The notes beneath the pieces were generated by a model. It saw only the letters and a list, made by a program, of their open reading frames with translations, made no database searches and was not told the origin of the DNA. This document shows, one piece after another, positions 6,795-57,732 of a stretch of 64,000 nucleotides of DNA (position 1 is its first letter; every line of letters starts with the position of its first letter). Made by a program: the position numbers and the translations under genes. The stretch covers positions 9,797 to 73,796 of the forward strand of contig JAKPOP010000020.1 in assembly GCA_029547805.1 (NCBI GenBank), written 5' to 3'. Origin of the DNA: Deltaproteobacteria bacterium. GTDB taxonomy: Bacteria; Myxococcota_A; UBA9042; DTJE01.

Positions 6795-8498
6795 ATGATG
6801 GGGCGCGGGATTCCCTGGATGCTGGCGATGGTGACGGCGGCGGCGGCAGTGCCGTCCGCAGTCGGATCACCCCCGACGTATCGGCCCTTCCTGGTGCTGG
6901 CCCCGGGATCCGAGGCCCTGTTCCTCGACCTCCTGCGCAGCGATCGTCCCGGCCTCCCGAAGGGTTGGACCCTGGAATCGATCGGCATCGAAGGACACCG
7001 GGCCCGAGCGACCTGGCAGGGACCCGGAGGCCGAACCGCGACCCTGGACCTCCTTCCCCCGGGGTCCGAGGGGCCCCAAGTGGTGGGCCGGACCCCCTGG
7101 GCCACCCTCCGGGTGCCGGACCCCAGGGCGGCTCCCCCCCGGGGCCTGATCCGGGCGGTGCTGGACCGGTTGTCGAGGCAGAGACCCAGGATTCCCTGGG
7201 AACGTCGGGTGGACCCCCTGGCGGTCCCGGCGGAGACCATCAACCGCCCGCGCCTCTCTCCGGGTTCGGGACCGGGAGCCGCCGAACTGGAACAGGCGGC
7301 CCAGGACCTCCGGAACGGGGGTCGGGAAGAGGCCCTGACCCGGATCGAACGGGTCCTGGGAATGCAGGACCTGGACCGACAGGCGATCCGCTTCGGGGCT
7401 CGCCTGCTCCGGGGGGCGGGAGAGGCCGCCCGGGCCCTGCCGTCCTGGGAGCGGACCGTTGGCGCCACCGGCGCCGCCATCTCACCGGAGGAGGCCCTGG
7501 AGTTCGTGGCGACCCTGGAGGCGGCGGGCCGCACCGAAACGGCTGCCCAGGTGGCCCGGGAACAGGCCGCCCGGAATCCCGATCGCTTCCCGTCGCCGTC
7601 CTGCCTCCGGGCCGAGGCCCTGGCCCTGCTGATCCGGGAAGGGACGTCCGTGGACGCGATGGTGGGGAACGGCCCGTTCCCCCTGGACCCCTCTCGGGGG
7701 CCGGCGTCCCGCTGCGCCTGGCTGCTGCAGTTGCACCGGGACACCGCGAGGAAGGACGGCGATGCGGTGATTCGGACCGCCCGGGCGGCCCTGGAGGCCT
7801 TCCCGGAGGACCGGGACATCCTGTACCTGTGGGGGCATTTCTTCTTCGTGCAGCACCGACTGGACCAGGCCCTGGACCCCTGGGACCGCCTCGCGGCCCT
7901 GGAGCCCACCTATCCCTCTCTCATGAGCCTCTACGGCACCGCCTATCTGGTATCGGGACGATTGCAGAAGGAGGGCATCGAGGCCCTGCTGGACCGCCAT
8001 CGCAAGCGTCCCGACGACGCAGTGGCCGCCTACCTGGCGGGACTCGGGCTGTTCTACCAGAAGGAGTACCCCCGGGTGATCCCCCTCCTGACCCAGGCGG
8101 CGGCGGCGGTCCCCGAGGACCCGAGACCGGCGATGTACCTGGCGATGGCCTACTTCTTCACCGGCGATCGGGACGAGGCGGTCCGGATCCTGGAGGGCCT
8201 GGAGCGCTTCACCTGGCAGGAACCGGACATCAACTACTGCCGTTCCCTGGTCTATCGATCCACGGACCTCCCCCGGGCGATCCGGGAGATGGAGACCTTC
8301 CTCCGGGTCTTCGAGGGGGAGGACCGGGTCAGTTTCGGGCCCCAGAAGGTCCAGAAGGCCCGCAGCGACCTGGAACGCATGCGTCGGGGGGAGGTGCCGG
8401 AGGTCTTTCTGCCCCAGCCCGACGGCTGGGATGCGCCGGTCCTGGAGGTGCAGCAGCGAATCGCCCCGCCCCACCCGGAGGCCGGCCATGACCCGTGA
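6795..8498 (+). CDS. Secreted TPR-repeat protein of about 567 aa.
   Basis: The Shine-Dalgarno GGAGGG sits 5 nt upstream of ATG 6795. The N-terminus MMGRGIPWMLAMVTAAAAVPSAVG is a signal peptide. Multiple TPR-like helical repeats occur in the C-terminal two-thirds. The gene overlaps the next gene by 11 nt. Confidence 0.6.
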   Translation: MMGRGIPWMLAMVTAAAAVPSAVGSPPTYRPFLVLAPGSEALFLDLLRSDRPGLPKGWTLESIGIEGHRARATWQGPGGRTATLDLLPPGSEGPQVVGRTPWATLRVPDPRAAPPRGLIRAVLDRLSRQRPRIPWERRVDPLAVPAETINRPRLSPGSGPGAAELEQAAQDLRNGGREEALTRIERVLGMQDLDRQAIRFGARLLRGAGEAARALPSWERTVGATGAAISPEEALEFVATLEAAGRTETAAQVAREQAARNPDRFPSPSCLRAEALALLIREGTSVDAMVGNGPFPLDPSRGPASRCAWLLQLHRDTARKDGDAVIRTARAALEAFPEDRDILYLWGHFFFVQHRLDQALDPWDRLAALEPTYPSLMSLYGTAYLVSGRLQKEGIEALLDRHRKRPDDAVAAYLAGLGLFYQKEYPRVIPLLTQAAAAVPEDPRPAMYLAMAYFFTGDRDEAVRILEGLERFTWQEPDINYCRSLVYRSTDLPRAIREMETFLRVFEGEDRVSFGPQKVQKARSDLERMRRGEVPEVFLPQPDGWDAPVLEVQQRIAPPHPEAGHDP

Positions 8499-10476
8499 GG
8501 AACTGCGGGAGGTTCCCCCGTTCTCGACGCTGGACGACGACCTGGCACGCGCCCTGGTGGCCGAGGCCCGGGAGGTCCCGGCACCGGCGGGCACCGACGT
8601 CCTGGGCCAGGACGAGGTCCCCGACGGCCTCATGGTGGTGTTGGAAGGGGCGTTGCAATCCCTCTGGCGGGACCCCGATAGCGGTCTGGTGTTCCTGGGT
8701 GCCCGGCGGGTGGAGGGCGAGGCCGTGGGACTCCCGGAGGTGCTCCTGGGCCGGCCGTCCCGCTGGAGCCTCCGGGCGGACCGGGAGACCCTGCTGGCGC
8801 AGATCCCCGGGGAATCTCTCCAGGTCCTCTGCGCCGATGACCCCCGGATCGCGGCACTGCTCATGCGCCAGGTCGCCGAGCGCCTCCATGCCGAGGCGGT
8901 CCCGGGCCGGTCCCCGGTCGTGGACCTCTCCCGGGTGGTGCTGGACGAGCAGCTCTGGGGCCTGCTGCCCCTGGGGCAATGGCGCAAGTACCGGGCGCTG
9001 CCCCTGGCCCAGAACGGCCGGATACTGGTGGTCGGCTTCGTGGACCCTGGGGACCTCCAGGCGATCGACGACCTCTCCCGGCTGCTATCGGCCTACCAGG
9101 TCCGACCCGTGGCCCTGGACCGGGGAGAGTTCGACCGCTTCCTCCGGGCCCGGGTCGTCCCGGCCCTGGAACGCATGCGGCCCGAAGAGTCCAACCGGGA
9201 CCGGTGGTTCCAGTCGGTCTCGGGGAAGACCTTCGAGGTCTCCCTGGTGGAGGCCCTGCCCGGGCAGACCGCCGAGGAGAGAAGCCGGTCCGTGAGCGGC
9301 GAGCAGGTGGTGGCGCTGGTGAACCGGCTCATCGGAGAGGCCCTGGACCTGTCGGCCAGCGACATCCACGTGGAACCCTCCGAGCAGGAGATGACGGTCC
9401 GCTACCGGGTGGACGGACGCCTGAAGCGACGCCCCGAGTCCCTGGACATGCGCTTTCACGCGCCCCTGGTGTCCCGGCTCAAGGCCCTGGGACGCATGGA
9501 CATCGCCGAGAAGCGCCGTGCCCAGGATGGACGCCTGACCATCCAGCACGGCCGACGGACCATCGACTTCCGACTGGCCACCGTCTCGACGCGCTTCGGG
9601 GAGAAGATCGTGCTGAGGATCCTGGACCCGCAGACGATCCTGATCGACCTGGAGCGCCTGATCCCCTACGACCCGGTGTACCGGGCCATCAGCGGCATGC
9701 TGGAACAACCCCAGGGGCTGGTGATTGTCGCGGGGCCCACGGGAAGCGGCAAGACCACCACGGTCTACAGCGCCCTGCTGCGCCTCCGCCAGGACGAGAT
9801 CAACATCGTCACCATCGAGGACCCCATCGAGTACACGGTCGAGGGGGTCACCCAGGTCCAGGTGAACCACGGGGCCGGGATCACCTTTGCCACCGCGGTC
9901 CGCCACTTTCTGCGCCAGGACCCCGACGTGATCGTCGTCGGGGAGACCCGGGACTCGGAGACGGCCGGCACCACCGTCGAGGCCGCTCTGACGGGCCATC
10001 TGGTATTCACGACGCTCCACGCCAACGATGCCCTTGGAACCGTGATCCGCCTGCGGGAGATGGGGGTGGACCCGTTCCTGCTGGCCCATACCCTGATCGG
10101 GGTCGTCAGCCAGCGCCTGGTCCGGCGGTCCTGTCCGCACTGCCGGCAACCGGTGGTCTATCACCCGGACCTGATCCGCCCCCTGGGCATCTTCCCGCCG
10201 GAGGAGGGCCAGGGAGGGTTCACGTTCCTGAAGGGGTCCGGATGCGCCCTGTGCAACTACCAGGGCTACAAGGGCCGCGTGGGCGTCTTCGAGACCTTGC
10301 GGGTCGAGGACCGACTGCGCCCGTTGTTGACCGGCGCCTCCGCGATGTCCGCCGTCGAGGAGGCGGCCCGGGCCACCGGCGCCCTCTCCCCCCTTCGGGA
10401 ACACTGCCGCCACCTGCTGCTCAACGGCATCACGACCCCCGAGGAGATCGCTCGGGTCCTCTTCACGACCCGCTAG
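8488..10476 (+). CDS. GspE/PilB-family secretion ATPase. It has an N-terminal cyclic-nucleotide-binding-like domain, a T2SSE_N domain, and a Walker A/B ATPase with a C-terminal tetracysteine.
   Basis: The Walker A is GPTGSGKTT and the Walker B-like motif is VIVVGETRD. The Zn-binding motif is CPHC...CALC. The T2SSE_N-like segment is VVLDEQLWGLLPLGQWRKYRALPL...ILVVGFVDPGDL. The N-terminal roughly 120 aa have a cNMP-binding-like pattern (LMVVLEG...EGEAVGLPEVLLGRP...LRA). The ATG MTREEL overlaps the TPR gene's stop. Confidence 0.75.
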   Translation: MTREELREVPPFSTLDDDLARALVAEAREVPAPAGTDVLGQDEVPDGLMVVLEGALQSLWRDPDSGLVFLGARRVEGEAVGLPEVLLGRPSRWSLRADRETLLAQIPGESLQVLCADDPRIAALLMRQVAERLHAEAVPGRSPVVDLSRVVLDEQLWGLLPLGQWRKYRALPLAQNGRILVVGFVDPGDLQAIDDLSRLLSAYQVRPVALDRGEFDRFLRARVVPALERMRPEESNRDRWFQSVSGKTFEVSLVEALPGQTAEERSRSVSGEQVVALVNRLIGEALDLSASDIHVEPSEQEMTVRYRVDGRLKRRPESLDMRFHAPLVSRLKALGRMDIAEKRRAQDGRLTIQHGRRTIDFRLATVSTRFGEKIVLRILDPQTILIDLERLIPYDPVYRAISGMLEQPQGLVIVAGPTGSGKTTTVYSALLRLRQDEINIVTIEDPIEYTVEGVTQVQVNHGAGITFATAVRHFLRQDPDVIVVGETRDSETAGTTVEAALTGHLVFTTLHANDALGTVIRLREMGVDPFLLAHTLIGVVSQRLVRRSCPHCRQPVVYHPDLIRPLGIFPPEEGQGGFTFLKGSGCALCNYQGYKGRVGVFETLRVEDRLRPLLTGASAMSAVEEAARATGALSPLREHCRHLLLNGITTPEEIARVLFTTR

Positions 10477-11404
10477 GCGGACCCGGCGGGCGCCGCAACC
10501 AGAGGAACCACTGGTCGCAGGTGTCGGGGCCCACGGGCCGATGCCAGACCACCTCGAAGGGCCAGCGACGCAGGACCTCCAGGACCTGATGAGACGAGAG
10601 ATTGCGGCGATGCTGCCAGCCCCCCTGGGCCTCCCGATGGGACCGGCGCGCCTTGGTCCGGGAACGGACCAGCGGCAGGGGAAGCGACTCCACGATCAGC
10701 AGGTCCCCTCCCGGAACCAGGGCGTCCCAGAGGACCTGGAGGGCCCGGGGAACGTCCTCGAAGTGGTTCAGGCTTCGAAGGGCCATGGCCGCGTCGAAGG
10801 GCGGTTCCCGGCCGGGGTCGAAGGACTCGATGGTCCCGGGATGCACCGGCAGGCCGTCCTCCGAGGCCCGGTCCACCACGGCGGGGTCCGGGTCCAGTCC
10901 CAGGTACTGGAGGTCCCCGGTCCGCAGGGCCTCCGCCAGGGCCGATCGGTAGGGGACCGACCCCATGCCGACGTCCAGCAGGCGGCCGCGACGCCCCCGG
11001 ATCCAGTCCTCCAGCCACCGTTCGTCCTCGTGGAAGAAGGACACGGGGGCCGGGACATGGCAGGCGCAGCAGGTCGGAAGGTAGGGACACGCCCGACAGG
11101 CGGCGGCCAGCACCACCTGGCGGAGGTCCGACCCGAAGTCATCGACGGAGGGCTTCTGCGAGATGTCGAGGTAGAGTTGCCCGCAGTGGTGCACCACCTC
11201 GCGGATCTCCCGATCGTCGAAGTCGCCCGTATCGGTCCGGCAGAGGACCGATCGTCCCTCCAAACGGACCACCACGACCCGGCTGCTCTGGACCCGGGCC
11301 AGGCCCAGGCCCACGGCGGGGCAGTCCCGGGCATCGGGCGCGAAGCCCGGGAGTTCCCGGACCGGCACGTAGTCGAACTGGTTGCTCCGGAGGTCCTCGG
11401 CCAT
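10463..11404 (-). CDS. SAM-dependent methyltransferase (class I fold) with an N-terminal Cys-cluster domain (CRACPYLPTCCAC).
   Basis: The methyltransferase motif-I-like segment is LLDVGMGSVPY. The motif post I/II is LGLDPDPAVVDRA...ALRSLNHFEDVPRALQVLWDALVPGGDLLIVE. The gene starts 3 nt after the stop of the upstream radical-SAM gene. Confidence 0.65.
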   Translation of the reverse strand: MAEDLRSNQFDYVPVRELPGFAPDARDCPAVGLGLARVQSSRVVVVRLEGRSVLCRTDTGDFDDREIREVVHHCGQLYLDISQKPSVDDFGSDLRQVVLAAACRACPYLPTCCACHVPAPVSFFHEDERWLEDWIRGRRGRLLDVGMGSVPYRSALAEALRTGDLQYLGLDPDPAVVDRASEDGLPVHPGTIESFDPGREPPFDAAMALRSLNHFEDVPRALQVLWDALVPGGDLLIVESLPLPLVRSRTKARRSHREAQGGWQHRRNLSSHQVLEVLRRWPFEVVWHRPVGPDTCDQWFLWLRRPPGPPSGS

Positions 11405-11407
11405 CGA

Positions 11408-12331
11408 TCAGTCCTCGAAGGGGTCCACCTCGTCGTCGCCATGACGAGCCAGGTAGTCCCGGCGCACCCCTGGACAGACGTCCCGGGCCAGGCGGCATCG
11501 CTCGCATGCCGGGACATGGGCATTGGGACTGATGGCCGATTCCCAGAGGAAGAACCGGGAACCGGGCGTCACCACCAGGACCCGATCCTGGCGGAGGTCC
11601 CGGCAGAACTCCTCGTATCCCTTCAGGAAACACCGGGGGATGTGCCGGGAATAGACCGTGACGCCCAGGCGGCGGCCACGCTCGAAGGCCTCGACGATAT
11701 GGTCCCGCATCTCCCGGACCCGAGGCAGGGCGTCGGGAAAGGCGGCGGTCCGGTCCGACAGGGAGACCAGCCACAGGGCGAAGGTGTCGATGCCCCGGCC
11801 GGCCCAGTACTCCACGATGTCCCCCAGGTGCCGGTAGGTGTCGTTCTTGATGATCAGGTCCGCCACGGGGACATGGCCCAGGTCCACGAGATTCCGGACC
11901 CCTTCCTCCACGAGCCGGAGGCCGTCGGGCCGTCCCAGGATCGAGGCATAGAGGTCCGGGCAGTGGGCCATCACCGAGACGTGGAACCTGGTCACCCCGG
12001 CCTCGACGGTCCGCCGGGCGAACTCCCGGTAGGAGTAGAGCAGGCCGTTCGAAGAGACCTTCAGTTCCTCGAATCCCCGGTCCCGGGCCAGACGCGCCAG
12101 GGCCAGGAAATCCTTGCGAATCGTTGGCTCCCCTCCGCCGAAGGCCGCCTTCCGGATCCCGAGCGACCGGGCATGGGCCAGTTCCTGGATCACCTCGGCG
12201 GTGCTGAGATTGTGGCGGCGCATCTCCGGGGTGATGCTGCAGTAGTCGCACTGGACGTTGCACTCGTAGCCCAGGATCAGGTCCACCATCACGTCCGACA
12301 GGTCCTGCACCTGCCCGAGGCTCTCAGGCAT
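11408..12331 (-). CDS. Radical SAM protein with a C-terminal SPASM/twitch-like Cys cluster.
   Basis: CNVQCDYC (CxxxCxxC) lies near the N-terminus. GGGEPT is the SAM-binding motif. The C-terminal cluster is CERCRLARDVC. The start MPESLGQ overlaps the upstream gene's end by 8 nt. Confidence 0.7.
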   Translation of the reverse strand: MPESLGQVQDLSDVMVDLILGYECNVQCDYCSITPEMRRHNLSTAEVIQELAHARSLGIRKAAFGGGEPTIRKDFLALARLARDRGFEELKVSSNGLLYSYREFARRTVEAGVTRFHVSVMAHCPDLYASILGRPDGLRLVEEGVRNLVDLGHVPVADLIIKNDTYRHLGDIVEYWAGRGIDTFALWLVSLSDRTAAFPDALPRVREMRDHIVEAFERGRRLGVTVYSRHIPRCFLKGYEEFCRDLRQDRVLVVTPGSRFFLWESAISPNAHVPACERCRLARDVCPGVRRDYLARHGDDEVDPFED

Positions 12332-14621
12332 GCTGGTCCTCCTCCTCGAAGACGAAGAACCCGTCACAGGCCGGGGCATGGGGACAGACCCGACAGGGTT
12401 CCCGCCGGACCCGCCGGGAGGACAGGTACTCGAAGAGATTCACCGTCTCCTCGGTGACGAAGATCATCGACCGCCCGATCTTGCCCACGTCACCGACCAG
12501 GAAGCGCTCGTATCCCGGGAAGAGACAGAAGGGGGCGTTCACGACGAAGAGACGCATCGAGGCCCCGTGACGGTCCAGCACCTCCCGGATGGCCGCCGCA
12601 GCGCGCCCCTCCTCGGGCAGCACCTGCGCCCCGGCGGACCCGAAGGGGGTCAGCATCTGGAGGTTCACCTTGTCCACCCCCTCCTCCCGGATGCGTTCCA
12701 CCAGCGGCAACAAGCGGTCCACGTTGGCCCGGCAGACCGTCACGTTGACCCCCAGGTCCAGGGTGGATCCCCGTCCCCGGACCAGGTTCCGGAGCCCCGC
12801 CAGGGTCTCCCGGAAGGACCCGGGGCGGCCGGTGATGCCGTCGTGGACCTCGGGAACGTCCCCGTGGAGCGAGACCAGCACCGAGGTGACGCCGGCGTCC
12901 AGCAGGGCCCGGGCCACCGCCGGGTCCGCCAGGCGTCGGCCGTTCGTGGTGACGTTGATCTCCCGGTACCCGAGGTCCCGGGCCAGGCGCAGGGCCTCGA
13001 GCAGGTGGGGATGGAGGGTCGGCTCCCCGCCGTCGATGTCCAGGTGCTCGATGCCCGCCTCCCGGTGATGCCGCAGGATCTCCTGGAGTCGGGGCCAGGG
13101 GATGGGGCGTCGCACCCGGTTCGCCACCGCGCAGAACTCGCACTCGTTGATGCACTCGTAGGTGACGTTGATGATCACCTTCCGGGTGGTCGATGCCTGG
13201 ACCTTGCGCCGGAAGGCCTGGACCGCCGTCTCAAGCCATCCCTCGGGGATCGACGGCGGGCGAAACGCGGGCCGATGCTGGAACAGGGCCCCGTCGCCAG
13301 GCAGTCCCCCGTCGGCAGGCAGGAGACCCCGACGGAGGCACTCCTCGAAGAGACCCGTGCCCCGAAGCGGCGTGGCGAACTGCACCGCCGGTTCCGCGCC
13401 GAGTTCCTCGTAGTAGCGCCAGGCCAGGTCCAGGGTCGCCAGCACCGACTCGGGGGTCTCCCAGGGGAATCCCACCACGAAGTGCACCATCGTCGGCAGC
13501 CCCAGCCGGGCGGCCCCCTGGAGCACCCGCTCGACCTCTCGGAGGTCCTGGCGCTTCCCGATCAGGCCCTGGAGGTCCTCCTGGCTGGCCGACTCCGCCG
13601 AGACCGAGAGCCGGGAGACCCGTCGGGCCAGGGCGGGGAGCACGTCGTCCGGGAGGCGATCGGCCCGAAGCCCGTTGGGGAACTCCACCCGGAGGTCGGC
13701 CTGGCCGAAGACCTCCAGCACCTCCGGAAAGTCGGGCCTCAGGTTGGCCATCTCGTCCAGCACGATCAGGTTCCGGGCTCCCATGGCCCGGGCCAGCATC
13801 ACCCAGTCCCGCAGGACCGGCAACGGGACCCGCCGCTGGACCTTGCGCCCCGTCTCCCGCCACCCGGGATTGCTGGAGCAGAAGAGGCAGCGATGGGGGC
13901 ACCCCGAGGAGGTCAGCAGCGCGCGGGACCCGGCATCGATGCGAAAGGGATTCGCCCAGGTCCCATCCTCGAAACATCGCCACAGAAAGGCGCTCCAGTG
14001 TCCGCGGTCCAGGGCCTCCCAGAGCGGGAAGGGCGGCGGCACCTCCCAGTCGCCCGCCGGCATCCGGACCTCGGCCCGGGAGCCCTTGAGGTCCCGCAGG
14101 CGCCGGGGGTCATCGAAGGCGGCCTCCCCGGCCCACCGAAGAAATCCGTCCAGCACCGGGAGCGCCTCCAGCACGGACCCGTCGGGAGGGTCCACCGCGT
14201 GCATGCCCCCCACATCGGCATCGGCCAGCACCAGGGTCGCCCGGGGCCAACTCCGGCGCAGGGCATCGAGCAATCCGACGGTATCCGGATGCGGTGCCCA
14301 GGCCCGCAGGAAGGGCGAGTTTCCAACGACCACGACCGAGGGTTCCTCTGGTGGCATCGCCGCCAGGAGGTCCTCCTCCCCGACCCCGAGGCGCCAGCCC
14401 TCCCCTTCCCTGGACCGGCCGGCACCCGGCAATGCAAAGGCATCGACGACCTGGGCCCGCCATCCTGCCCGGGAGGCCCGGGCCGCGGCGAAGAGGAGTC
14501 CCAGGTCCGCAAACCACGGGTAGTCCACGAAGTCGGACGGCAGGTGCAGCGGAGGCTGGACGAACAGGATGCGATCCGGTGTCACGAGGGCCTCCGGCGG
14601 ACAGGCGGGCCGCCGAGGCAT
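12324..14621 (-). CDS. 765-aa fusion protein. It has an N-terminal B12-binding-like/Rossmann region plus a radical-SAM core, followed by a second complete radical-SAM/SPASM domain.
   Basis: There are two independent CxxxCxxC motifs, SGCPHRCLFCSS and TYECINECEFCAV. The second domain has GGEPTL and a C-terminal Cys cluster CRVCPHAPAC. Codon bias is consistent across 2.3 kb. Confidence 0.7.
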   Translation of the reverse strand: MPRRPACPPEALVTPDRILFVQPPLHLPSDFVDYPWFADLGLLFAAARASRAGWRAQVVDAFALPGAGRSREGEGWRLGVGEEDLLAAMPPEEPSVVVVGNSPFLRAWAPHPDTVGLLDALRRSWPRATLVLADADVGGMHAVDPPDGSVLEALPVLDGFLRWAGEAAFDDPRRLRDLKGSRAEVRMPAGDWEVPPPFPLWEALDRGHWSAFLWRCFEDGTWANPFRIDAGSRALLTSSGCPHRCLFCSSNPGWRETGRKVQRRVPLPVLRDWVMLARAMGARNLIVLDEMANLRPDFPEVLEVFGQADLRVEFPNGLRADRLPDDVLPALARRVSRLSVSAESASQEDLQGLIGKRQDLREVERVLQGAARLGLPTMVHFVVGFPWETPESVLATLDLAWRYYEELGAEPAVQFATPLRGTGLFEECLRRGLLPADGGLPGDGALFQHRPAFRPPSIPEGWLETAVQAFRRKVQASTTRKVIINVTYECINECEFCAVANRVRRPIPWPRLQEILRHHREAGIEHLDIDGGEPTLHPHLLEALRLARDLGYREINVTTNGRRLADPAVARALLDAGVTSVLVSLHGDVPEVHDGITGRPGSFRETLAGLRNLVRGRGSTLDLGVNVTVCRANVDRLLPLVERIREEGVDKVNLQMLTPFGSAGAQVLPEEGRAAAAIREVLDRHGASMRLFVVNAPFCLFPGYERFLVGDVGKIGRSMIFVTEETVNLFEYLSSRRVRREPCRVCPHAPACDGFFVFEEEDQHA

Positions 14622-14708
14622 TCTAGGAGAGCCCGTCCGGGTTTGTCCAACGCAGGCGGCGGGACGCGGGCATCCATGGGTCCAGGGCCCGCTCGCCAGA
14701 GAACACCC

Positions 14709-15995
14709 CTAGGGGGCTTCCAGGTAGGCCCGGGCCTCGGCAGCACCGCCGCCCTGAGGGAACCGTTCGAGATACCGGGTGAACCAGTACCGGGCATCTT
14801 CCCGGTTGCCCTTGCGGTGCCTCAGGCGCGCAATCCCGAGCATCGTCGGCCCGTAATCGGCATTCCGCCGCAGGGCCTCCCGGTAATGGCGCTCGGCACC
14901 CTCCAGGTCCTGCTGCTGCATTGCCAGGTCCCCCATCCGGCTCAGGGGTTCGACCCGGGTGGGACGCAACTGGGCCGCCCGCCGAAAATGGGCCATCGCC
15001 GCATCGGGACGGGTGGTCATGAGCCGATTGCCTGCCTCCATGTGGGCATCGTAGGTATCGGGCTCCTCGGGCGGCGACGGGTCCACCTGCCGTCCCTCCC
15101 GCGGTTCCGACCGGGAAGCCGGGCGGGTTCCAGGAGCAACCTCCGGTGCGACCTCACGCGTCGCCTCGCCCCCCGGGGGCGCCGCGTCCCCGGACGAGAC
15201 GCCGGGATCCTCGGCCGGGGGAATCCCCCGGTCCTGCCCTCCGACCGGGGCGTCCGGTCCTTCGGCAGCCGGTCCCCCGGCCAGGACCGGGTCCGTCGCG
15301 CCAGGGTCCCCCGCTCCTCCCACCAGGACCGCGTCGGGACGATCCGGGGAGGCGACGCCCTCCTCGCGTCCCAGCCGCCCGGCCCACCAGAGGGCCAGGG
15401 CACCGGCCGTCACCAGCACCGGGATCACCACCAGCAGCACCCGTTGCAACGGGAGGCTCCGGGATCCCCCTGGGTCCGAGGCCCACCACTCTCCCTCCAC
15501 GGCCTCCGCCGGGGCGGGGGCCGTTTCCCCTTGCGACCGGGTCGGCCCGTCCCCAGGGAATGCCGGACCGGAATCCGGAATCGATGCCGTCTGGACAGCC
15601 TGATCCTCCCGGGAGGGAAGCGGGGCCGTGGAGATCCGCTCCGTCGGGGCAGCGACCGGCTCCGGTGCCCGGGGACCCGGATCGAGGACCGGGGGGACCC
15701 ACTCGCCGGTCCGCCGGAGGTCCTCCGGACCCTCCGGGGGAGCCTCCGCGGGAACCCGGGCCGCCCCCCGGTCAGGGACGCCTCCGGCCGGGAACGACGG
15801 CGGCGTCGCGGGACCAGCGCGACCGGCCTGAGAGAAGTCCAGCAGGTCCGTGAGGGGATGCCAGGCCTGATCGGTCCCCAGGAACCGGTCGCTCCACTGG
15901 ATGCGGCCGCTCTCGATCCAACGCCGGGCGACCGATGCATCCTCGAAGCGCAGGAGCACCCCTTCGGAGGTCCGGATGAAGATGGGATTCCCCAT
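14709..15995 (-). CDS. Membrane-anchored protein. It has an N-terminal DUF4339/GYF-like domain, a Pro/Gly-rich linker, one transmembrane helix and C-terminal TPR repeats.
   Basis: The N-terminus is MGNPIFIRTSEGVLLRFEDASVARRWIESGRIQWSDRF. The transmembrane helix is LLVVIPVLVTAGALALWWAG. The C-terminal region has a TPR-like AxxxF/Y pattern. Confidence 0.55.
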   Translation of the reverse strand: MGNPIFIRTSEGVLLRFEDASVARRWIESGRIQWSDRFLGTDQAWHPLTDLLDFSQAGRAGPATPPSFPAGGVPDRGAARVPAEAPPEGPEDLRRTGEWVPPVLDPGPRAPEPVAAPTERISTAPLPSREDQAVQTASIPDSGPAFPGDGPTRSQGETAPAPAEAVEGEWWASDPGGSRSLPLQRVLLVVIPVLVTAGALALWWAGRLGREEGVASPDRPDAVLVGGAGDPGATDPVLAGGPAAEGPDAPVGGQDRGIPPAEDPGVSSGDAAPPGGEATREVAPEVAPGTRPASRSEPREGRQVDPSPPEEPDTYDAHMEAGNRLMTTRPDAAMAHFRRAAQLRPTRVEPLSRMGDLAMQQQDLEGAERHYREALRRNADYGPTMLGIARLRHRKGNREDARYWFTRYLERFPQGGGAAEARAYLEAP

Positions 15996-16004
15996 CGGGC
16001 CCCC

Positions 16005-16901
16005 TCACTTCGTGAAGAGCCAGAGGAAATACCCCCCCACGCCTGCCGCCCCGACGAAGAGGGCCCACAGCAGGGGTTTCAGCCACCCCCGGGAAGGGGG
16101 CTTCGAGGTATTGGCCACCTTGAAGGTGAAGCCCGTCGTGGGAGTCCGCGGCTGGGGAGAAACAGAGGACTCGGACGACGAGACGTCCGCGGCCCCATCG
16201 CCTCCCATGGCCCCCGAAACCGTGGGAATCGCCCCCGAGGAACCCCGCCCGGGCGACGTGGGAGCCCGGAAGGCCTGGGTCGGGCGACCACCGCGCTTGA
16301 TCTCCTGGAGAAAGGCATCCAGGGGCTTCCAGTCGCCTCCCGCGCGGCACACCTGATAGGGGGCCGGATTGTCCACCACCGCCGACCACGCGACCAGCAG
16401 GGCCGGGCTCGAGAACTCCAGCACCAGGCCCGTGGGAGACTTCACCATCCACTCCTGGCCGGAATCCTCGTTCGCGGACACCGCGGCCCCATCAGGGCCC
16501 TCGGGGCTGCCGGGGTCCCTCACCGCCGCGGAGGCCGGGGGCGGGGGGACCACTTCCACGGCTCCGGAGACCGACGCCCGGATCGGCGGAATGGAATCGG
16601 TGTCCCGTCGGACATGGGGCACCGGGCCGGTCCGGGGGGAGTTCCCCGACTCCCCGGAAGAACCGGGGGTCGCGCCTTTCCGGATTGCCAGCGACTGGGG
16701 CTTCCGGAAGGCCCCGCCGGTCCCCTCCGACACGCTCTCCCGGGTTCCCGAGGGGGCGCTCATCCGGGGCAGCGGCCGCCCGCCAGCAGGATGGAAGACC
16801 TGTTCCGCGCCGCAGCGCGGACACTTCAGCGGGCCTCCCGAAGCAGGCAGGGTTCCATCGGGTTCGAACTCGCCGAGGCAGTTCAGGCAAATGAGTTCCA
16901 T
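16005..16901 (-). CDS. Zinc-ribbon protein (CLNC...CPRC) with a DUF4339/GYF-like domain and a C-terminal transmembrane anchor.
   Basis: The internal start MELICLNCLGEFEPDG...KCPRCGAE gives two CxxC pairs. The later segment WMVKSPTGLVLEFSSPALLVAWSAVVDNPAPYQVCRAGGDWKPLDAF is GYF/DUF4339-like. The C-terminal hydrophobic tail is LLWALFVGAAGVGGYFLWLF. The longer 481-aa N-terminal extension is low-complexity and probably not translated. Confidence 0.45.
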   Translation of the reverse strand: MELICLNCLGEFEPDGTLPASGGPLKCPRCGAEQVFHPAGGRPLPRMSAPSGTRESVSEGTGGAFRKPQSLAIRKGATPGSSGESGNSPRTGPVPHVRRDTDSIPPIRASVSGAVEVVPPPPASAAVRDPGSPEGPDGAAVSANEDSGQEWMVKSPTGLVLEFSSPALLVAWSAVVDNPAPYQVCRAGGDWKPLDAFLQEIKRGGRPTQAFRAPTSPGRGSSGAIPTVSGAMGGDGAADVSSSESSVSPQPRTPTTGFTFKVANTSKPPSRGWLKPLLWALFVGAAGVGGYFLWLFTK

Positions 16902-17055
16902 CGTCCCATCCGTTGCCCGAGGTAACAGTAGCACCGGGACGGGGCGTTCCGCAAGGGCGAGGCCGGGGTTTTGGCACCAGACGCATTCCGATGCTACGCT
17001 GACCCGGGCCCGGGGTCCACCCGAGAGGGGCGTTCCGAGGCCAGAGGAGGAACCG

Positions 17056-19506
17056 ATGTCCGGAACGTCCAGGGTCTCGCCTCCTTCCCGGACCGGCGAA
17101 GTCCTTGGCGTCCTGCTGTCGCTGTTCGCGCTGCTCGTGCTGGTGGCGCTGGTCACCTCCGACCGCGCCGACGTGCAGGCGACGGTCGGGACCCGGACGG
17201 AAAACTTCCTGGGCCCCGTGGGTGCCCACATGGCGGACCTCTTCCTGTGGGCCCTGGGAATCGTCTCCTTTCCGCTGGTGACGCTGCTGGGATGGATCGG
17301 CGTCGGGGCCGTGATCGGGCGGCCTGTCCGCCTGGATGGACGCAATGCCTTCTCGGCCCTGGCCCTGCTCATCTCCCTGGCCACGCTGCTGCACCTGGCG
17401 GCGGGCTCGGTGGACCTCCTGGGATACCCGCCCGGAGGAACACTGGGCATCCACGCCGGAGAGGGCCTGTCGGTGCTCCTTTCCGACCGGGGGGCCGTGC
17501 TGGTCTCGGTCCTCGTGATCGTGATCTCCGGGACGCTGCTGGTGGATCGACCGGTCGGGGGGCTCTACCGGTTCGTCGGGAGGGCCCTCTGGCACCTGGT
17601 GCGCTGGCCGACCCGGACCTTCCTCTCCTGGTGGCGCAGGCCCCGGCCCACCGAACCGCCGATCCCCGTCGAGACGGAACCGGTGGTGGTCGCCGAGGCC
17701 TCCGATAGCCAGGAGGCGACCCGCCGGGAGGTACGCCCCCCGATGGACCCGCCGGCCACCTCGTCGACGGGACCGAGGCACTGGCCCGGCGACCCGGTGA
17801 CGTTGCCTCCGGCGGACCCGCCCACGGAGGACCTGCCGCCGGTGGTGGAGGTCCCCCTGCGGGACATTCCCATTCGCGGCGGTCCGCCGGCTTCCGACCC
17901 CGGTCCCGAGGAGGCCCCCCCGAGGACCCGGACCACCCAGGGACCTCGGATCGTGGTGACCCCCCAGAAGGCCCCGGCGGTCCAGGAGACCCTGCACCTG
18001 CCCCGGACCACCGCCCAACCCTGGGTGCCCCCTCCCCTCTCGCTGCTGGACAGCCAGGAGAGCCGGGGTCCCGTGGTCGATCCCGATTTCCTGAGGCGCA
18101 ACGCCGCGGTGCTGGAGCGGAAACTGCTGGACTACAAGGTCGAGGGAAAGGTCGTCGAGATCCACCCGGGCCCCGTGGTGACGATGTACGAGTTCCTGCC
18201 GGCACCCGGGGTCAAGATCAGTCAGATCGCTGCGCTGGCGGACGACCTCACGATGGCCCTGGAGGCCGTCAGCATCCGCATCGTCGCCCCGATCCCCGGC
18301 AAGGGCGTCGTCGGCATCGAGGTCCCGAACGCCGTCCGGGAGACGGTCTATCTGCGGGAGATCCTCGCCAGCGAGTCCTTCACGAAGACCCGCAGCAAGC
18401 TGACCCTGGCCCTCGGCAAGGACATCTTCGGGACTCCCGTCTCGACGGACCTCTCCCGGATGCCGCACCTGCTCATTGCGGGAGCCACGGGGGCCGGCAA
18501 GTCCGTGGCCATCAACGCCTTCATCCTGAGCCTCCTCTACAACGCCTCTCCCGAGGAGGTCCGCCTGATCCTGGTGGACCCCAAGGTGGTCGAACTGCAG
18601 GTCTACGAAGGCATCCCGCACCTGCTGCTGCCGGTGGTCTATGACCCGAAGCACGCCGCCGCGGCGCTCCGGTGGGCGGTCGAGGAGATGGAACGCCGCT
18701 ACCAGTTGCTGGCTCGCTTCAACTGCCGCAACCTCCAGTCCTTCAACCAGCGGGTGGACCGCCTCCAGCAGAACCGGCCGGACCTTCCCCTGGGGGTCGA
18801 TCTCCAGGAAGAGACCCAGGTCACCAGCGTTCCCGGGAACCCCGAGGAGGAGACCGACCCGGACCAGATGGAGCGCCTTCCCTACATCGTGATCGTGCTG
18901 GACGAGTTCGCGGACCTGATGATGATCGCCTCCAAGGACGTGGAGCACGCGGTGGCGCGCCTGGCCCAGAAGGCCCGGGCCGCGGGCATCCACCTCGTGA
19001 TGGCCACCCAGCGCCCCTCGAAGGAGGTCATCACCGGGCTGATCAAGGCCAACTTCACCACCCGGATCGCCTTCCGGGTCTCCTCGAAGATCGACAGCCG
19101 CATCATCCTGGACCAGGGAGGCGCCGACGCCCTGCTGGGCTTCGGCGACATGCTGTTCCTCCGGCCGGGGTCCTCGGTGCTGGAGCGGGTCCACGGACCC
19201 TTCGTGTCCGACGAGGAGGTCGCCCGGGTCACGGCCCACCTGAAGGCCCAGGGGAGCCCCGACTACCGCATGGAGATCCTCCAGGCCGCCGCGGAGGAGG
19301 CCGATAAGGAGCAGGACGAGGAGCAGGACGACCTGCTGGTGGAGGCCCAGGCCATCGTGATGGAGAGCCGGCGGGCCAGCATCTCGTTCCTGCAGCGCCG
19401 CCTCAAGATCGGGTACAACCGATCGGCCCGGATCATGGAGCAACTGGAGCGACGGGGAGTGGTCGGGCCTCCGGACAGTCGCGGGGAACGACAGGTCCTC
19501 GTCTGA
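17056..19506 (+). CDS. ftsK: DNA translocase FtsK.
   Basis: The Shine-Dalgarno GAGGAGG sits 4-5 nt before ATG. The N-terminus has four predicted transmembrane helices and is followed by a Pro-rich linker. The FtsK alpha/beta motor has Walker A GATGAGKS and Walker B VIVLDEFADLM. The C-terminal gamma domain winged helix is LQRRLKIGYNRSARIMEQLE. Confidence 0.85.
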   Translation: MSGTSRVSPPSRTGEVLGVLLSLFALLVLVALVTSDRADVQATVGTRTENFLGPVGAHMADLFLWALGIVSFPLVTLLGWIGVGAVIGRPVRLDGRNAFSALALLISLATLLHLAAGSVDLLGYPPGGTLGIHAGEGLSVLLSDRGAVLVSVLVIVISGTLLVDRPVGGLYRFVGRALWHLVRWPTRTFLSWWRRPRPTEPPIPVETEPVVVAEASDSQEATRREVRPPMDPPATSSTGPRHWPGDPVTLPPADPPTEDLPPVVEVPLRDIPIRGGPPASDPGPEEAPPRTRTTQGPRIVVTPQKAPAVQETLHLPRTTAQPWVPPPLSLLDSQESRGPVVDPDFLRRNAAVLERKLLDYKVEGKVVEIHPGPVVTMYEFLPAPGVKISQIAALADDLTMALEAVSIRIVAPIPGKGVVGIEVPNAVRETVYLREILASESFTKTRSKLTLALGKDIFGTPVSTDLSRMPHLLIAGATGAGKSVAINAFILSLLYNASPEEVRLILVDPKVVELQVYEGIPHLLLPVVYDPKHAAAALRWAVEEMERRYQLLARFNCRNLQSFNQRVDRLQQNRPDLPLGVDLQEETQVTSVPGNPEEETDPDQMERLPYIVIVLDEFADLMMIASKDVEHAVARLAQKARAAGIHLVMATQRPSKEVITGLIKANFTTRIAFRVSSKIDSRIILDQGGADALLGFGDMLFLRPGSSVLERVHGPFVSDEEVARVTAHLKAQGSPDYRMEILQAAAEEADKEQDEEQDDLLVEAQAIVMESRRASISFLQRRLKIGYNRSARIMEQLERRGVVGPPDSRGERQVLV

Positions 19507-21020: not shown

Positions 21021-21267
21021 CGATCCTCCTGCCCGATGTCGCCCCCGTTGGCGACCGCCGCAACGATATCCCTCCCCGATGCCCCCGTAAATAGGGACCG
21101 TCACCGAATGACCCCACCGAACCCCTGGTTCCGCCGGAAGGATTTGCGGCGGCGCGCCGGACGTCGGGGCGCCTCGACGGGAGGCATTGCGGGGCCTCCG
21201 GCGTTACAATGCCTCGGCGCATCCCATCCGGACTTCCCGGAGGATGGAGCCATCCAAGGAGGGGACC

Positions 21268-23451
21268 GTGATTGGACGGCGGGTGTCACGGGTCGCGGCG
21301 CTGTGGATCACCCTGGCAACGGCCGCCTGCACCCGACTGGTCGACGACCGGCCCGAGGAAGTCGGCCCCCCGGACCTCCCTGGACAGGACCAGGGAGCGG
21401 CGGAACTGCCGGACACCGTCGAGGCAGAGGCGATCGAGGCCTGCCCCGGTGCCCTGCGATGCCCCTGCGAACAGGGCTCCGACTGCGACTCCAGCCTGTG
21501 CCTGGACTCCCTGGAGGGAATGGTCTGCTCCACCCTCTGCGGCCTGGGCCAGAGTTGTCTCCCGGGATGGCACTGCCTGGAGGTCTCGACGGGCTTCGAC
21601 CCGATCCACGGATGCGTACCGGCGGCCCCGAGCCTCTGTCGTCCCTGCATCAGCGACCAGGACTGCGCCCCGAAGGCGGGGGCCCCCGAGGGCCTCTGGG
21701 TCTGCATCTCCCACGGCGACGACGGAAGTTTCTGCGGGGCCCCGTGCCAGGAGGACCGGGACTGCCCCGACCAGCCGGTGGCCTTCCGATGCGATGCGAT
21801 TCCGCTGGCAGCCGGCGGGACCGTGCGCCAGTGCGTCCCGGCATCGGGGCAATGTCCCTGCACGGACAAGTTTCGGACGGCCCTCTTCGAGACCATCTGC
21901 CAGATCCGCAACGAACATGGGGTCTGTCCCGGACGGCGAACCTGCGATGAGGCGTGCCAGGGAACGGCCCCCGAGGCCGAGACCTGCAACGGCCTCGACG
22001 ACGATTGCGATGGCGAGACCGACGAGGACCTCCCGCCCCTGCCGTGCGAGATTCAGAATGCCTACGGGGCCTGCCCTGGCCGCCGCCCCTGCCTGTCGGG
22101 CAGCCTGGGTCCCTGCGATGCCCCGACCCCGGCCCTGGAGGCCTGCAACGGCCTGGACGACAACTGCGACGGCCGGACCGACGAGGAGTTTCCGGATCGG
22201 GACCGGGACGGGATCGCCGACTGCGTGGACCCGGACATCGACGGGGACGGCATCTTGAACGATGGGGACCGCTGCCCGTACGACCCCGACCCGGACCAGG
22301 CGGACAACGACGGAGACGGGCCTGGGGACGCCTGTGACGACGACGACGACAACGACGGGACGCCGGACCCTGCGGACCTCTGTCCCCGGGTCCCCGACCC
22401 CCCGGACGGGACCCCTGGGGACGCCGACGGCGACGGCCTGGGAGACCGCTGCGACTGCGATGCCGACGACGACGGCTGGTCCAATCCAGGGCTCACGGAC
22501 TTCGCCGGGACGCCCTGTTCCCTGACGAGCCCGGCCCGGGACAACTGCCCCCGGGTGTCCAATCCGGACCAGCAGGACACGGATCGCGACGGGACCGGGG
22601 ACGCCTGCGACTGCGACGTGGACGCCGACGGCATCCCGAACAACAACCCCGGCTGTCCCGAGGTCCAGACACCGGACAACTGCCGGCAGGTGCCCAACCC
22701 GGACCAGGCGGACGGGGATGGGGATCGGATCGGGGACGCCTGCGACTGCGACCTGGACAACGACGGCGTTCAGAATCCCAATCCTGGCTGTCCTGAACCC
22801 CTTCCGGCGGACGACTGCCCCCTGGTCTCCAACCCCGACCAGCAGGACACCGACGGGGATGGCGATGGGGATGCCTGCGACTGCGATGCCGATGGAGACG
22901 GCGTCCCGAACCCGGCTCCTGGATGTCCCGACCCGGGTCCCCTGGGCGACAACTGCCCCCTGGTCTTCAATCCCGACCAGCGGAACACCAGCGGGGGACC
23001 GTTCGGGGACGCCTGCAACCCCGACCTCGACGACGACGGGGTCCCGGTGGACCAGGACAACTGCCCGGCGGTCCCGAACCCGGACCAACGGGACGCCGAC
23101 GGCGATGGCCAGGGCGACGCCTGCGACTGCGACGGGGACGGGGACGGCTTCGGAAACCTGGGCCTGGACCTCGACGGTCGCCCGTGTCCGACCCCGCCGA
23201 TCCTGGACAACTGCCCTCGGATTGCGAATCGGGACCAGGCCGACCTGGACCGGGACGGCATCGGCGATGCCTGCGACTGCGACGTGGACGGCGACGGGGA
23301 CCCCCAGCCCAATTTCGAGTGCCCGACCCCGATTCCGGCCGACTGCGACCCCTTCGACCCGGAAGTCGCCCACCTCGCCCCGGAGCGCTGCCGGAACGGC
23401 GTCGACGACAACTGCAACGGCGTGGTCGACGAACCCGGTTGCGTGGAATGA
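21268..23451 (+). CDS. Secreted lipoprotein with an N-terminal Cys-rich region, Myxococcales CNGxDDDCDG repeats, and about 25 thrombospondin type-3-like Ca-binding repeats (DxDxDGxxDxxDxCP).
   Basis: The best start is GTG 21268 with AGGAGGGG 4 nt upstream (MIGRRVSRVAALWITLATAAC). Alternative in-frame starts are at 21187 (TTG) and 21244 (ATG). The repeated Asp-rich motifs CPxxPNPDQxDxDGDGxGDACDxDxD are visible throughout. Confidence 0.6.
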   Translation: MIGRRVSRVAALWITLATAACTRLVDDRPEEVGPPDLPGQDQGAAELPDTVEAEAIEACPGALRCPCEQGSDCDSSLCLDSLEGMVCSTLCGLGQSCLPGWHCLEVSTGFDPIHGCVPAAPSLCRPCISDQDCAPKAGAPEGLWVCISHGDDGSFCGAPCQEDRDCPDQPVAFRCDAIPLAAGGTVRQCVPASGQCPCTDKFRTALFETICQIRNEHGVCPGRRTCDEACQGTAPEAETCNGLDDDCDGETDEDLPPLPCEIQNAYGACPGRRPCLSGSLGPCDAPTPALEACNGLDDNCDGRTDEEFPDRDRDGIADCVDPDIDGDGILNDGDRCPYDPDPDQADNDGDGPGDACDDDDDNDGTPDPADLCPRVPDPPDGTPGDADGDGLGDRCDCDADDDGWSNPGLTDFAGTPCSLTSPARDNCPRVSNPDQQDTDRDGTGDACDCDVDADGIPNNNPGCPEVQTPDNCRQVPNPDQADGDGDRIGDACDCDLDNDGVQNPNPGCPEPLPADDCPLVSNPDQQDTDGDGDGDACDCDADGDGVPNPAPGCPDPGPLGDNCPLVFNPDQRNTSGGPFGDACNPDLDDDGVPVDQDNCPAVPNPDQRDADGDGQGDACDCDGDGDGFGNLGLDLDGRPCPTPPILDNCPRIANRDQADLDRDGIGDACDCDVDGDGDPQPNFECPTPIPADCDPFDPEVAHLAPERCRNGVDDNCNGVVDEPGCVE
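22180..23300 (+). repeat. Coding array of thrombospondin type-3-like Asp-rich repeats (a degenerate period of about 24-36 aa).
   Basis: The codon strings for DxDxDGxxDxCD and NPDQxDxD recur (gacggggacggc, aacccggaccag). Confidence 0.55.
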
Positions 23452-56124: not shown

Positions 56125-56242
56125 GTCCCGTCCTCCCGGTCCCGCCTGCCTCGCCAGGATGGTCTCTGCCCCTCGGGACACCTGTCGGTCATCGGAGACG
56201 CGAACTCCCCGACGCGCGTCACGAGCGACCCGACGTGAGATT

Positions 56243-57646: not shown

Positions 57647-57732
57647 CGCTGTTCCTTTCGGATCGGAGGATACCGGAAATGCGACTCCCTGGGAAGCAAC
57701 AAGCGGCCTTCCCCTAGTCGATCGGGCGGATC

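Follow-up and report, generated by a model that had tools for sequence, protein, structure and literature searches.

What is the function of a gene block that encodes three radical S-adenosylmethionine (rSAM) domains together with a methyltransferase, and which of its genes belong together? The question is raised by a 64,000-nucleotide stretch of Deltaproteobacteria DNA (contig JAKPOP010000020.1; G+C content 70%), referred to here as the window, in which five genes, g1 to g5, lie on the minus strand between ftsK and a gene for a secretion-type ATPase. The original prediction saw in them a single operon for an undescribed maturation system. The definition of a smaller module, g3–g4–g5, is well supported. 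With a probability that we would put at about one in two, these three genes specify a separately transcribed complex of four catalytic modules, which would have arisen from the maturases of type-4 His-Xaa-Ser (HXS) systems and would combine radical modification with methylation of a target encoded outside the operon. The three genes (lengths in amino acids, aa) are as follows.

12324-14585 (GTG start), minus strand: g3, rSAM two-core fusion, 753 aa (765 aa from an alternative ATG at 14621)
11408-12331, minus strand: g4, HxsC/MoaA-type rSAM protein, 307 aa
10463-11404, minus strand: g5, cysteine-rich N-terminal domain and class-I SAM methyltransferase, 313 aa

From its N-terminus, g3 comprises a Rossmann-like domain, a class-B-type rSAM core, an HxsC/MoaA-type rSAM core and a C-terminal domain with four cysteines, at the following positions (residues numbered from the ATG at 14621; AF2, AlphaFold 2).

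14052-14573, minus strand: Rossmann-like domain, residues 17-190, alternating beta/alpha in the AF2 model
13332-13928, minus strand: rSAM core 1, residues 232-430, C241-x3-C245-x2-C248
12522-13181, minus strand: rSAM core 2, residues 481-700, C490-x3-C494-x2-C497
12366-12527, minus strand: candidate auxiliary-cluster site, C699...C743-x2-C746-x5-C752

The presence of two complete rSAM cores, as first proposed, is upheld by Pfam, by cysteine conservation and by structure prediction, and the second CxxxCxxC motif is not incidental. Full-length g3 matches PF04055 with 127.2 bits in two stretches, the best of them at residues 484-615, and the N-terminal half alone scores 59.1 bits (cutoff 29.5). 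C241/245/248, C490/494/497 and C699/743/746/752 are all invariant in an alignment of 21 sequences reaching down to 47% identity, and the AF2 model computed from this alignment (pLDDT 87.6, pTM 0.85) displays two separate rSAM cores. In Foldseek searches of the PDB, the N-terminal half is closest to AprD4 (6fd2, TM-score (TMt) 0.68-0.70), MgmA, TokK and TsrM, with E values from 1e-13 to 1e-10, and the C-terminal half to BlsE, SkfB, viperin and MoaA. A profile-based sequence search of the PDB is consistent with these neighbours and found no close solved structure.

The N-terminal half thus has the same predicted two-domain fold, Rossmann plus rSAM core, as the class-B rSAM enzymes AprD4, MgmA, TokK and TsrM, and its Rossmann-like domain, as modelled, appears to resemble the cobalamin-binding domain of these enzymes. 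In line with this, the nearest NCBIfam neighbours of core 1 are all B12-binding/rSAM families, all far under their cutoffs. It differs from the class-B enzymes in having no Pfam B12-binding (PF02310) match, despite the predicted fold, in sharing only 13-17% identity with them and in being fused to a second rSAM core. PF02310 does match two other genes of the window. AprD4 itself works without cobalamin. As regards the fusion, a precedent is FbiC, which unites CofG and CofH for the F420 precursor and in which two CxxxCxxC rSAM cores in one polypeptide serve one pathway. Both FbiC and g3 hold two complete cores, but their rSAM subfamilies are unrelated, and the substrates of FbiC are small molecules, with no methyltransferase as its partner.

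For the C-terminal half of g3, the best NCBIfam model is HxsC4 (110.2 bits, cutoff 500), followed by HxsC (84.6 bits, cutoff 267.9); g3 is not recognized as a MoaA either, reaching only 74.3 bits with the MoaA models TIGR02666/TIGR02668 (cutoff 325). This half has a paralogue in g4, to which it is about 27-30% identical. g4 matches PF04055 with 74.6 bits (cutoff 29.5), and its C24/28/31 and C234/276/279/286 are invariant among 42 homologues. Its HxsC4 score of 75.8 bits is level with that for archaeal MoaA (75.7), and HxsC follows at 39.4 bits, all of them under the curated cutoffs just given. HxsC4 is accordingly the best or joint-best family for both proteins, and neither is HxsC4. The original prediction had also assigned SPASM or SPASM-like clusters to g3 and g4, which finds no support in Pfam: its SPASM model matches neither protein. 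A SPASM domain is expected to carry seven or eight C-terminal cysteines and a twitch domain about three or four; the four invariant ones found in each protein leave room for one auxiliary cluster, so that "twitch-like" would be the better description.

The third gene, g5, is a class-I methyltransferase preceded by a cysteine cluster, as initially described.

11015-11404, minus strand: cysteine-rich N-terminal domain of g5, residues 1-130, with C28, C103, C106 and C112 invariant
10463-11014, minus strand: class-I SAM methyltransferase domain of g5, matching Pfam Methyltransf_11/12/23/25

Methyltransf_11 scores 39.6 bits (cutoff 21.2), and Methyltransf_12 and Methyltransf_23 are likewise above cutoff. 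With an AF2 model of pLDDT 91.8, Foldseek retrieves many class-I methyltransferases (E about 5e-9); this search is dominated by the methyltransferase domain, which resembles natural-product and quinone methyltransferases. Within the N-terminal domain, residues 43-116 give a weak, below-cutoff match to the SPASM-domain model TIGR04085 (E=0.025). A relationship of this domain to HxsD or to the SPASM domain of HxsB was rejected by hhalign, with a probability below 1%.

Natural fusions tie g5 to the rSAM proteins. A single open reading frame (ORF) joins an HxsC-like rSAM module to a g5-like module in four loci (L039, L061, L071 and L047), as checked by translation, by family matches on both halves and by a frame-aware test. 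At two sites with the same flanking genes as the window, ftsK and the ATPase gene, only the N-terminal half of g3 and g5 are kept.

L044, 10001-12415: N-terminal half of g3 fused in frame to g5; C-terminal half of g3 and g4 deleted
L048, 10001-12397: N-terminal half of g3 and g5 parted by one stop codon; C-terminal half of g3 and g4 missing

A search with the N-terminal domain of g5 among 1.84 billion representative proteins returned 106 clusters. The domain follows a module of about 300 aa in 54 of them (52 proteins of 520-670 aa; the module is rSAM where checked) and a module of about 470 aa in two, and it occurs in a stand-alone, g5-like protein in 26; the other 24 are short fragments, probable N-truncated fusions and two long proteins. 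In protein P0158, an rSAM::g5 fusion, the rSAM part closes with the g4-like C-terminal cysteine motif, and P0169 is a g3::g5-like fusion. Since g5 is thus joined to rSAM proteins, to the N-terminal half of g3 and to g3 itself, the g5 module appears to be a dedicated partner of this rSAM group, with parts that work together.

The three genes are also linked across genomes. Homologues of g3, labelled by tblastn, were collected from 74 loci, all of them in metagenome-assembled genomes (MAGs) of Myxococcota, Binatia, "Deltaproteobacteria", Thermodesulfobacteriota and others; no cultured organism among them carries the module. g4 lies directly downstream of g3 (less than 400 nt) in all 43 loci where g3 is at least 44% identical and the contig leaves downstream room, and g5 then follows g4 in 13-14 loci, here called type B (the window, L003, L004, L005, L007, L008, L010, L025, L035, L036, L038, L043, L064 and L067). 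Around the type-B trio the order ftsK...T2SS-type ATPase (T2SS, type II secretion system) is conserved. Relative to L003, dN/dS is 0.19 for g3, 0.14 for g4 and 0.21 for g5, as compared with 0.13 for ftsK and 0.12 for the ATPase gene; the trio is under selection just as strict as that acting on the core genes at its flanks. In comparisons with L003 and L005, the identities of g3-g5 follow those of the flanking genes, which argues for vertical inheritance in a core region, unlike a defence island. The expectation of three genuine rSAM domains and a cysteine-cluster methyltransferase is thereby borne out for a tightly coupled unit that is conserved across genomes.

Two features upstream of g3 bear on its transcription and on its start codon.

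14620-14649, minus strand: sigma-70-like promoter of g3-g4-g5, TGGACA, 18 nt, TAGAAT
14585-14597, minus strand: Shine-Dalgarno sequence GGAGG, 5-nt spacer and GTG start of g3, read from the sequence and fitting the 753-aa annotation

No second promoter-like site occurs in 10200-17300, where shuffled sequences lead one to expect 0.2, and a TAGAAT-like −10 box recurs just upstream of g3 across the type-B loci irrespective of the gene that precedes g3 (g2, aroC or a divergent gene for a conserved "GYPDCCA" protein). Since the ATG at 14621 and the −10 box overlap, the GTG at 14585 is most likely the true start of g3. The 753-aa form is on record and an exact 765-aa form is not; the length of 765 aa originally given to the protein is probably too long. 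The GTG start makes the g2-g3 spacer, which measures 87-123 nt according to the start chosen, about 123 nt long, with the promoter inside it. Within the trio, g3 and g4 overlap by 8 nt and g4 and g5 are 3 nt apart.

The short-ORF check agreed with the earlier impression that the spacers hold no precursor gene: the small ORFs in 14586-14708 (g2-g3) and 16902-17055 (g1-ftsK) are not conserved. No precursor-peptide gene was found within or beside the maturase operon, so the locus does not correspond to a cluster for a ribosomally synthesized and post-translationally modified peptide. Tandem Repeats Finder yielded no peptide-repeat candidate near the locus. Two further candidates were discarded: an RNA element such as a riboswitch ahead of g3, because an Rfam scan of 10000-17500 gave chance matches only (E<=1), and, in L025, a repeat before g3 that would encode His-Gly but lacks a start codon and is not preserved in L007. 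The gene for the "GYPDCCA" protein, of about 290 aa and with a weak DUF483 match (E=0.039), is the immediate, divergent upstream neighbour of g3 in six type-B loci (those below together with L043, L064 and L067); the window does not contain it.

L004, 4447-5307, minus strand: "GYPDCCA" protein
L035, 76-1062, minus strand: "GYPDCCA" protein
L038, 8970-9836, minus strand: "GYPDCCA" protein

In other lineages the g3 family is most often found beside HXS genes. The HXS system, HxsABCD, was reportedly predicted by Haft and Basu in 2011. In about 28 of the 61 scorable loci, HxsB and/or HxsD are found at most 10 kb from the g3 homologue, in most cases as part of a single block on one strand, and there g3 and g4 orthologues share an operon with HxsB, HxsD and an HxsA-type repeat protein. 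In what we call type-A loci (for example L009, L011, L014, L017, L018, L028, L031, L033, L042, L059, L061 and L071; g3 about 45-50% identical) the same-strand order is r617, r626, r345, g3, g4, HxsD, HxsD-like, HxsB, where r617, r626 and r345 are rSAM proteins that are themselves below the HxsC4 cutoff. Upstream lies a divergent pair encoding a 129-aa protein that ends in 15-25 His-Gly-Ser repeats and a protein with a twin-arginine (TAT) signal; such repeats are present in 21 related loci. The HXS proteins of type-A loci exceed their cutoffs.

HxsB of type-A loci: TIGR03978, 506 bits (cutoff 370)
HxsD of type-A loci: TIGR03976, 55 bits (cutoff 50)
HxsD-like protein of type-A loci: NF038315, 59.6 bits (cutoff 41)
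Repeat protein of type-A loci: NF038313 (HxsA4), 143.7 bits (cutoff 55)

More distant g3 homologues, at 35-40% identity (L047, L052, L055, L057 and L058), are likewise near HxsB, HxsD and HxsA. Adjacency to g5 and adjacency to HxsD/HxsB are mutually exclusive, and no HxsA, HxsB or HxsD was found within 10 kb on either side of any type-B locus. A rough neighbour-joining tree nests type B among HXS-linked clades, which would make the HXS context ancestral.

Some variations on these contexts deserve mention. In type-A loci the HxsA4 repeat gene is regularly followed by a gene for a protein of about 225 aa with a twin-arginine signal and without a Pfam or NCBIfam match (L002/L009 850-5070 and other type-A loci), and the pair is sometimes duplicated within a locus. 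In the Anaeromyxobacter-like loci L007 (4393-10175) and L025 (11300-15687), the trio is accompanied by four HxsC-like rSAM genes on the opposite strand, one of which scores 324 bits on HxsC4 (cutoff 500); HxsA, HxsB and HxsD were not found on these contigs. A third, rare context of the g3 family is nitrogenase-like. In L037 (1-13200), which comes from the MAG that also contains L048, so that this MAG holds the g3 family at two places, g3-g4 are the last genes of a cluster on one strand. The other members encode a NifH-like ATPase, two proteins resembling nitrogenase component 1, a 999-aa protein in which Radical_SAM matches two stretches, and a B12-binding protein; the locus also shows a possible frameshift. 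In L066 (10800-13600), NifH/D/K-like genes lie about 8 kb from g3.

The HXS link provides the main point of comparison for function. HXS provides defence against phages: its effector, HxsA, resides in the periplasm and is matured by HxsB, HxsC and HxsD, and HxsD forms a core complex with HxsC (Li et al. 2026, PMC13128918). During maturation HxsA is processed at its N-terminus and changes by +8 Da on SHRSS (a Ser-His-x-Ser-Ser motif), the chemistry of which is still unsolved, and matured HxsA blocks phage DNA entry from the periplasm (PMC13128918). The systems described have four genes and are 99.7% in Pseudomonadota (PMC13128918). Both HXS and the module of the window employ HxsC/MoaA-type rSAM enzymes, and both probably carry out post-translational modification by radical chemistry. 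Type-4 HXS, a variant known only through the curated NCBIfam models HxsA4 (NF038313), HxsC4 (NF038332) and HxsD-like (NF038315), also shares parts with the family, HxsA4 and HxsD-like being carried by the type-A relatives. The module of the window differs in lacking HxsA, HxsB and HxsD, in adding a class-B-type rSAM domain and a methyltransferase, and in its vertical inheritance within the core genome of Myxococcota MAGs; the HxsC scores of g3 and g4 set it apart as well. The notion of an undescribed maturation system holds in part. None of the three proteins is specifically named by a model of Pfam, NCBIfam or PADLOC, the PADLOC defence models show generic viperin-like rSAM similarity only, and text searches on HXS/Hxs and on two-domain rSAM proteins turned up no description of the family. 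The enzyme classes and the HXS link, on the other hand, are already known, g3-g4 orthologues being part of expanded HXS systems.

From these data we infer that g3, g4 and g5, transcribed from their own promoter, would assemble into one complex with four modules: the class-B-type rSAM enzyme in the N-terminal half of g3, the two HxsC/MoaA-type rSAM enzymes in the C-terminal half of g3 and in g4, each with one putative four-cysteine auxiliary cluster site, and g5. Each rSAM domain would reductively cleave SAM and abstract a hydrogen from the target, leading to cross-linking, oxidation or C-methylation, and g5 would add a methyl group, its cysteine-rich, SPASM-like domain serving a docking or cluster role beside the methyltransferase. 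The family context would favour a protein or peptide over a small molecule as the target, which would be encoded elsewhere. The module may have originated as an offshoot of the multi-rSAM type-4 HXS machinery in the myxobacterial lineage, where HxsA4, HxsB and HxsD would have been lost, the methyltransferase would have come to follow g4 instead, and the remainder would have been inherited vertically.

Several observations weigh against this proposal. The closest solved structures are mostly of small-molecule enzymes (AprD4, BlsE, MoaA and viperin), and all scores of g3 and g4 with HxsC and HxsC4 are far under the curated cutoffs. HxsD, the partner of HxsC in the core complex of the studied system, is absent. 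None of the six frames of the 64-kb window contains an (HxS)x3 repeat, and tblastn searches of the window (E<=5) with HxsA4 and its leader, HxsB, HxsD, the TAT-signal protein and the extra type-A rSAM proteins matched only g3 and g4. The spacers are devoid of a conserved short ORF. The g3 homologues of L037 and L066 stand beside nitrogenase-like and not HXS genes, and the tree from which the ancestral HXS context is deduced is a rough one.

The first alternative is a small-molecule, cofactor or metallocluster pathway, in which the trio would tailor a nucleoside, a sugar, a tetrapyrrole, a lipid or an Fe-S-derived cofactor, and the link to HXS would reflect the supply of a group or cofactor, or simply paralogy. 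The structural neighbourhood would fit, as it includes the diol dehydratase AprD4, the decarboxylase BlsE, MoaA, viperin and GDGT-MAS, and so would the similarity of g5 to natural-product and quinone methyltransferases. Moreover, no precursor, RiPP recognition element, HxsD, protease or exporter was found in the unit, its core-genome location is stable, and L037 and L066 place g3, or g3-g4, by NifH/NifDK-like genes and further rSAM and B12 proteins. On the other hand, the setting in which the family occurs most frequently is an operon for protein maturation that includes HxsA4, HxsB and HxsD, the top families for the C-terminal half of g3 are HxsC4 and HxsC, the peptide modifiers SkfB, SuiB and PqqE are also among the structural neighbours, and no other biosynthetic genes are conserved beside the trio. 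We regard such a pathway as rather unlikely.

Alternatively, hxsA4, hxsB and hxsD may reside elsewhere in the genome, and the trio would then supply extra maturases to a split HXS system with a function in phage defence. This would be consistent with the orthologues in type-4 HXS operons, with the experimental demonstration that HXS is a defence system (PMC13128918) and with the MAG in which g3-family genes occupy two loci. Yet the HXS genes are absent both from the window and from the 10 kb on either side of all 13-14 type-B loci, the conserved ftsK...T2SS-type ATPase synteny and the core-like divergence of the trio are unlike those of defence islands, and adjacency to g5 excludes adjacency to HxsD or HxsB. 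A split system is accordingly improbable.

A further possibility, implied by the assumption of an operon of five genes, is that g1 and/or g2 are substrates or scaffolds of the rSAM enzymes. These genes and the two that bound the block are the following (TM, transmembrane; T4P, type IV pilus).

16005-16901, minus strand: g1, 298 aa, N-terminal CxxC...CxxC, a domain of about 55 aa and a C-terminal TM helix
14709-15995, minus strand: g2, 428 aa, N-terminal domain of about 55 aa, disordered linker, one TM helix and C-terminal TPR
17056-19506, plus strand: ftsK, divergent boundary of the five-gene block
8431-10476, plus strand: T2SS/T4P-type ATPase gene, convergent boundary, overlapping g5 by 14 nt

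That five co-directional ORFs with tight junctions are present, g1 and g2 being separated by 9 nt, agrees with the annotation of an identical public contig, which has the same five gene calls (P0001, 100% match; Logan SRR5007359, a Myxococcota MAG), and the five genes are adjacent and co-directional in L003 and L005 also. In addition, g1 and g2 have in common the domain of about 55 aa, with invariant Phe, Trp and Leu, as well as long disordered regions, features that might suit substrates. The neighbourhood comparison nevertheless identifies g3-g4-g5 as the conserved unit, with g1-g2 in only a subset of loci, where they keep to the neighbourhood of ftsK. The trio occurs without g1/g2 in L004, L007, L008, L025 and L035, and type-A loci have no g1/g2 throughout. 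g1 is syntenic with ftsK in L003, L005, L010, L038, L043, L044 and L048, and in L064 g1-g2 are present with no ftsK match detected. Between g1-g2 and g3, 6-7 kb of shikimate-pathway genes (aroB, aroA/E, aroK and aroC) intervene in L038, L043, L064, L044 and L048, the separated partner in the last two being the N-terminal half of g3 and g5 only. g3 has its own conserved promoter, and g1/g2 evolve faster than g3-g5 (dN/dS relative to L003 0.30-0.38, g2 0.38).

The GYF/DUF4339 label under which g1 and g2 had been proposed finds no support either: neither g1 and g2 nor ten homologous domain sequences match GYF_2/DUF4339 (PF14237) even at E<=10, although the HMMER filters may hide very weak matches, and no other Pfam family covers the common domain. 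The Zn-ribbon ascribed to g1 is a sub-threshold match (16.8 bits against 30.3), while the description of g2 as a transmembrane TPR protein is correct (one TM helix; TPR_2, 39.9 bits). g1 and g2 are thus probably outside the g3-g5 module, the operon of five is unsupported, and a role of g1/g2 as substrates or scaffolds is very unlikely. As a pair divergent from ftsK that is conserved in Myxococcota MAGs, they may point to a role in the cell envelope or in division.

Finally, the idea that the trio is a functionless, decaying remnant of an HXS-type cluster, suggested by the loss of HxsA, HxsB, HxsD and several rSAM paralogues relative to type A, by the further reduction in L044 and L048 and by the possible frameshift in L037, deserves next to no credence in view of the intact ORFs, the invariance of all cluster cysteines, dN/dS values (0.14-0.21) equal to those of the housekeeping neighbours and the retention of the trio in relatives down to about 44% identity.

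If we return to a complex derived from HXS maturases, HxsC-type enzymes appear to have diversified in two directions. In Binatia and delta-proteobacterial MAGs they form large assemblies, in which HxsA4 is accompanied by as many as six or more rSAM proteins, and a reduced trio persists alone, under strong selection and in a core-genome setting. The trio could offer a simpler handle on the chemistry of HxsC-type enzymes, and may represent a case of defence and housekeeping machinery swapping parts. One may go further, though only tentatively, and suppose that a lineage of Myxococcota turned parts of the HXS maturation apparatus into a housekeeping complex, by which some cellular protein or cofactor that is encoded elsewhere would receive a novel modification, radical and methyl combined. 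Such a complex would imply a new family of rSAM enzymes and a class of substrate not yet seen for HxsC-type enzymes.

The window contains other genes of interest. About 40 kb from the module, two adjacent genes each combine Pfam B12-binding and Radical_SAM domains and make up a separate class-B rSAM pair; their similarity to the N-terminal half of g3 is weak (26-32%). A thrombospondin type-3 repeat protein is encoded closer to the module, with a 135-bp tandem repeat present in 3.7 copies at 22539-23046.

54742-56181, minus strand: B12-binding and Radical_SAM protein
56243-57733, minus strand: B12-binding and Radical_SAM protein
21112-23451, plus strand: thrombospondin type-3 repeat protein

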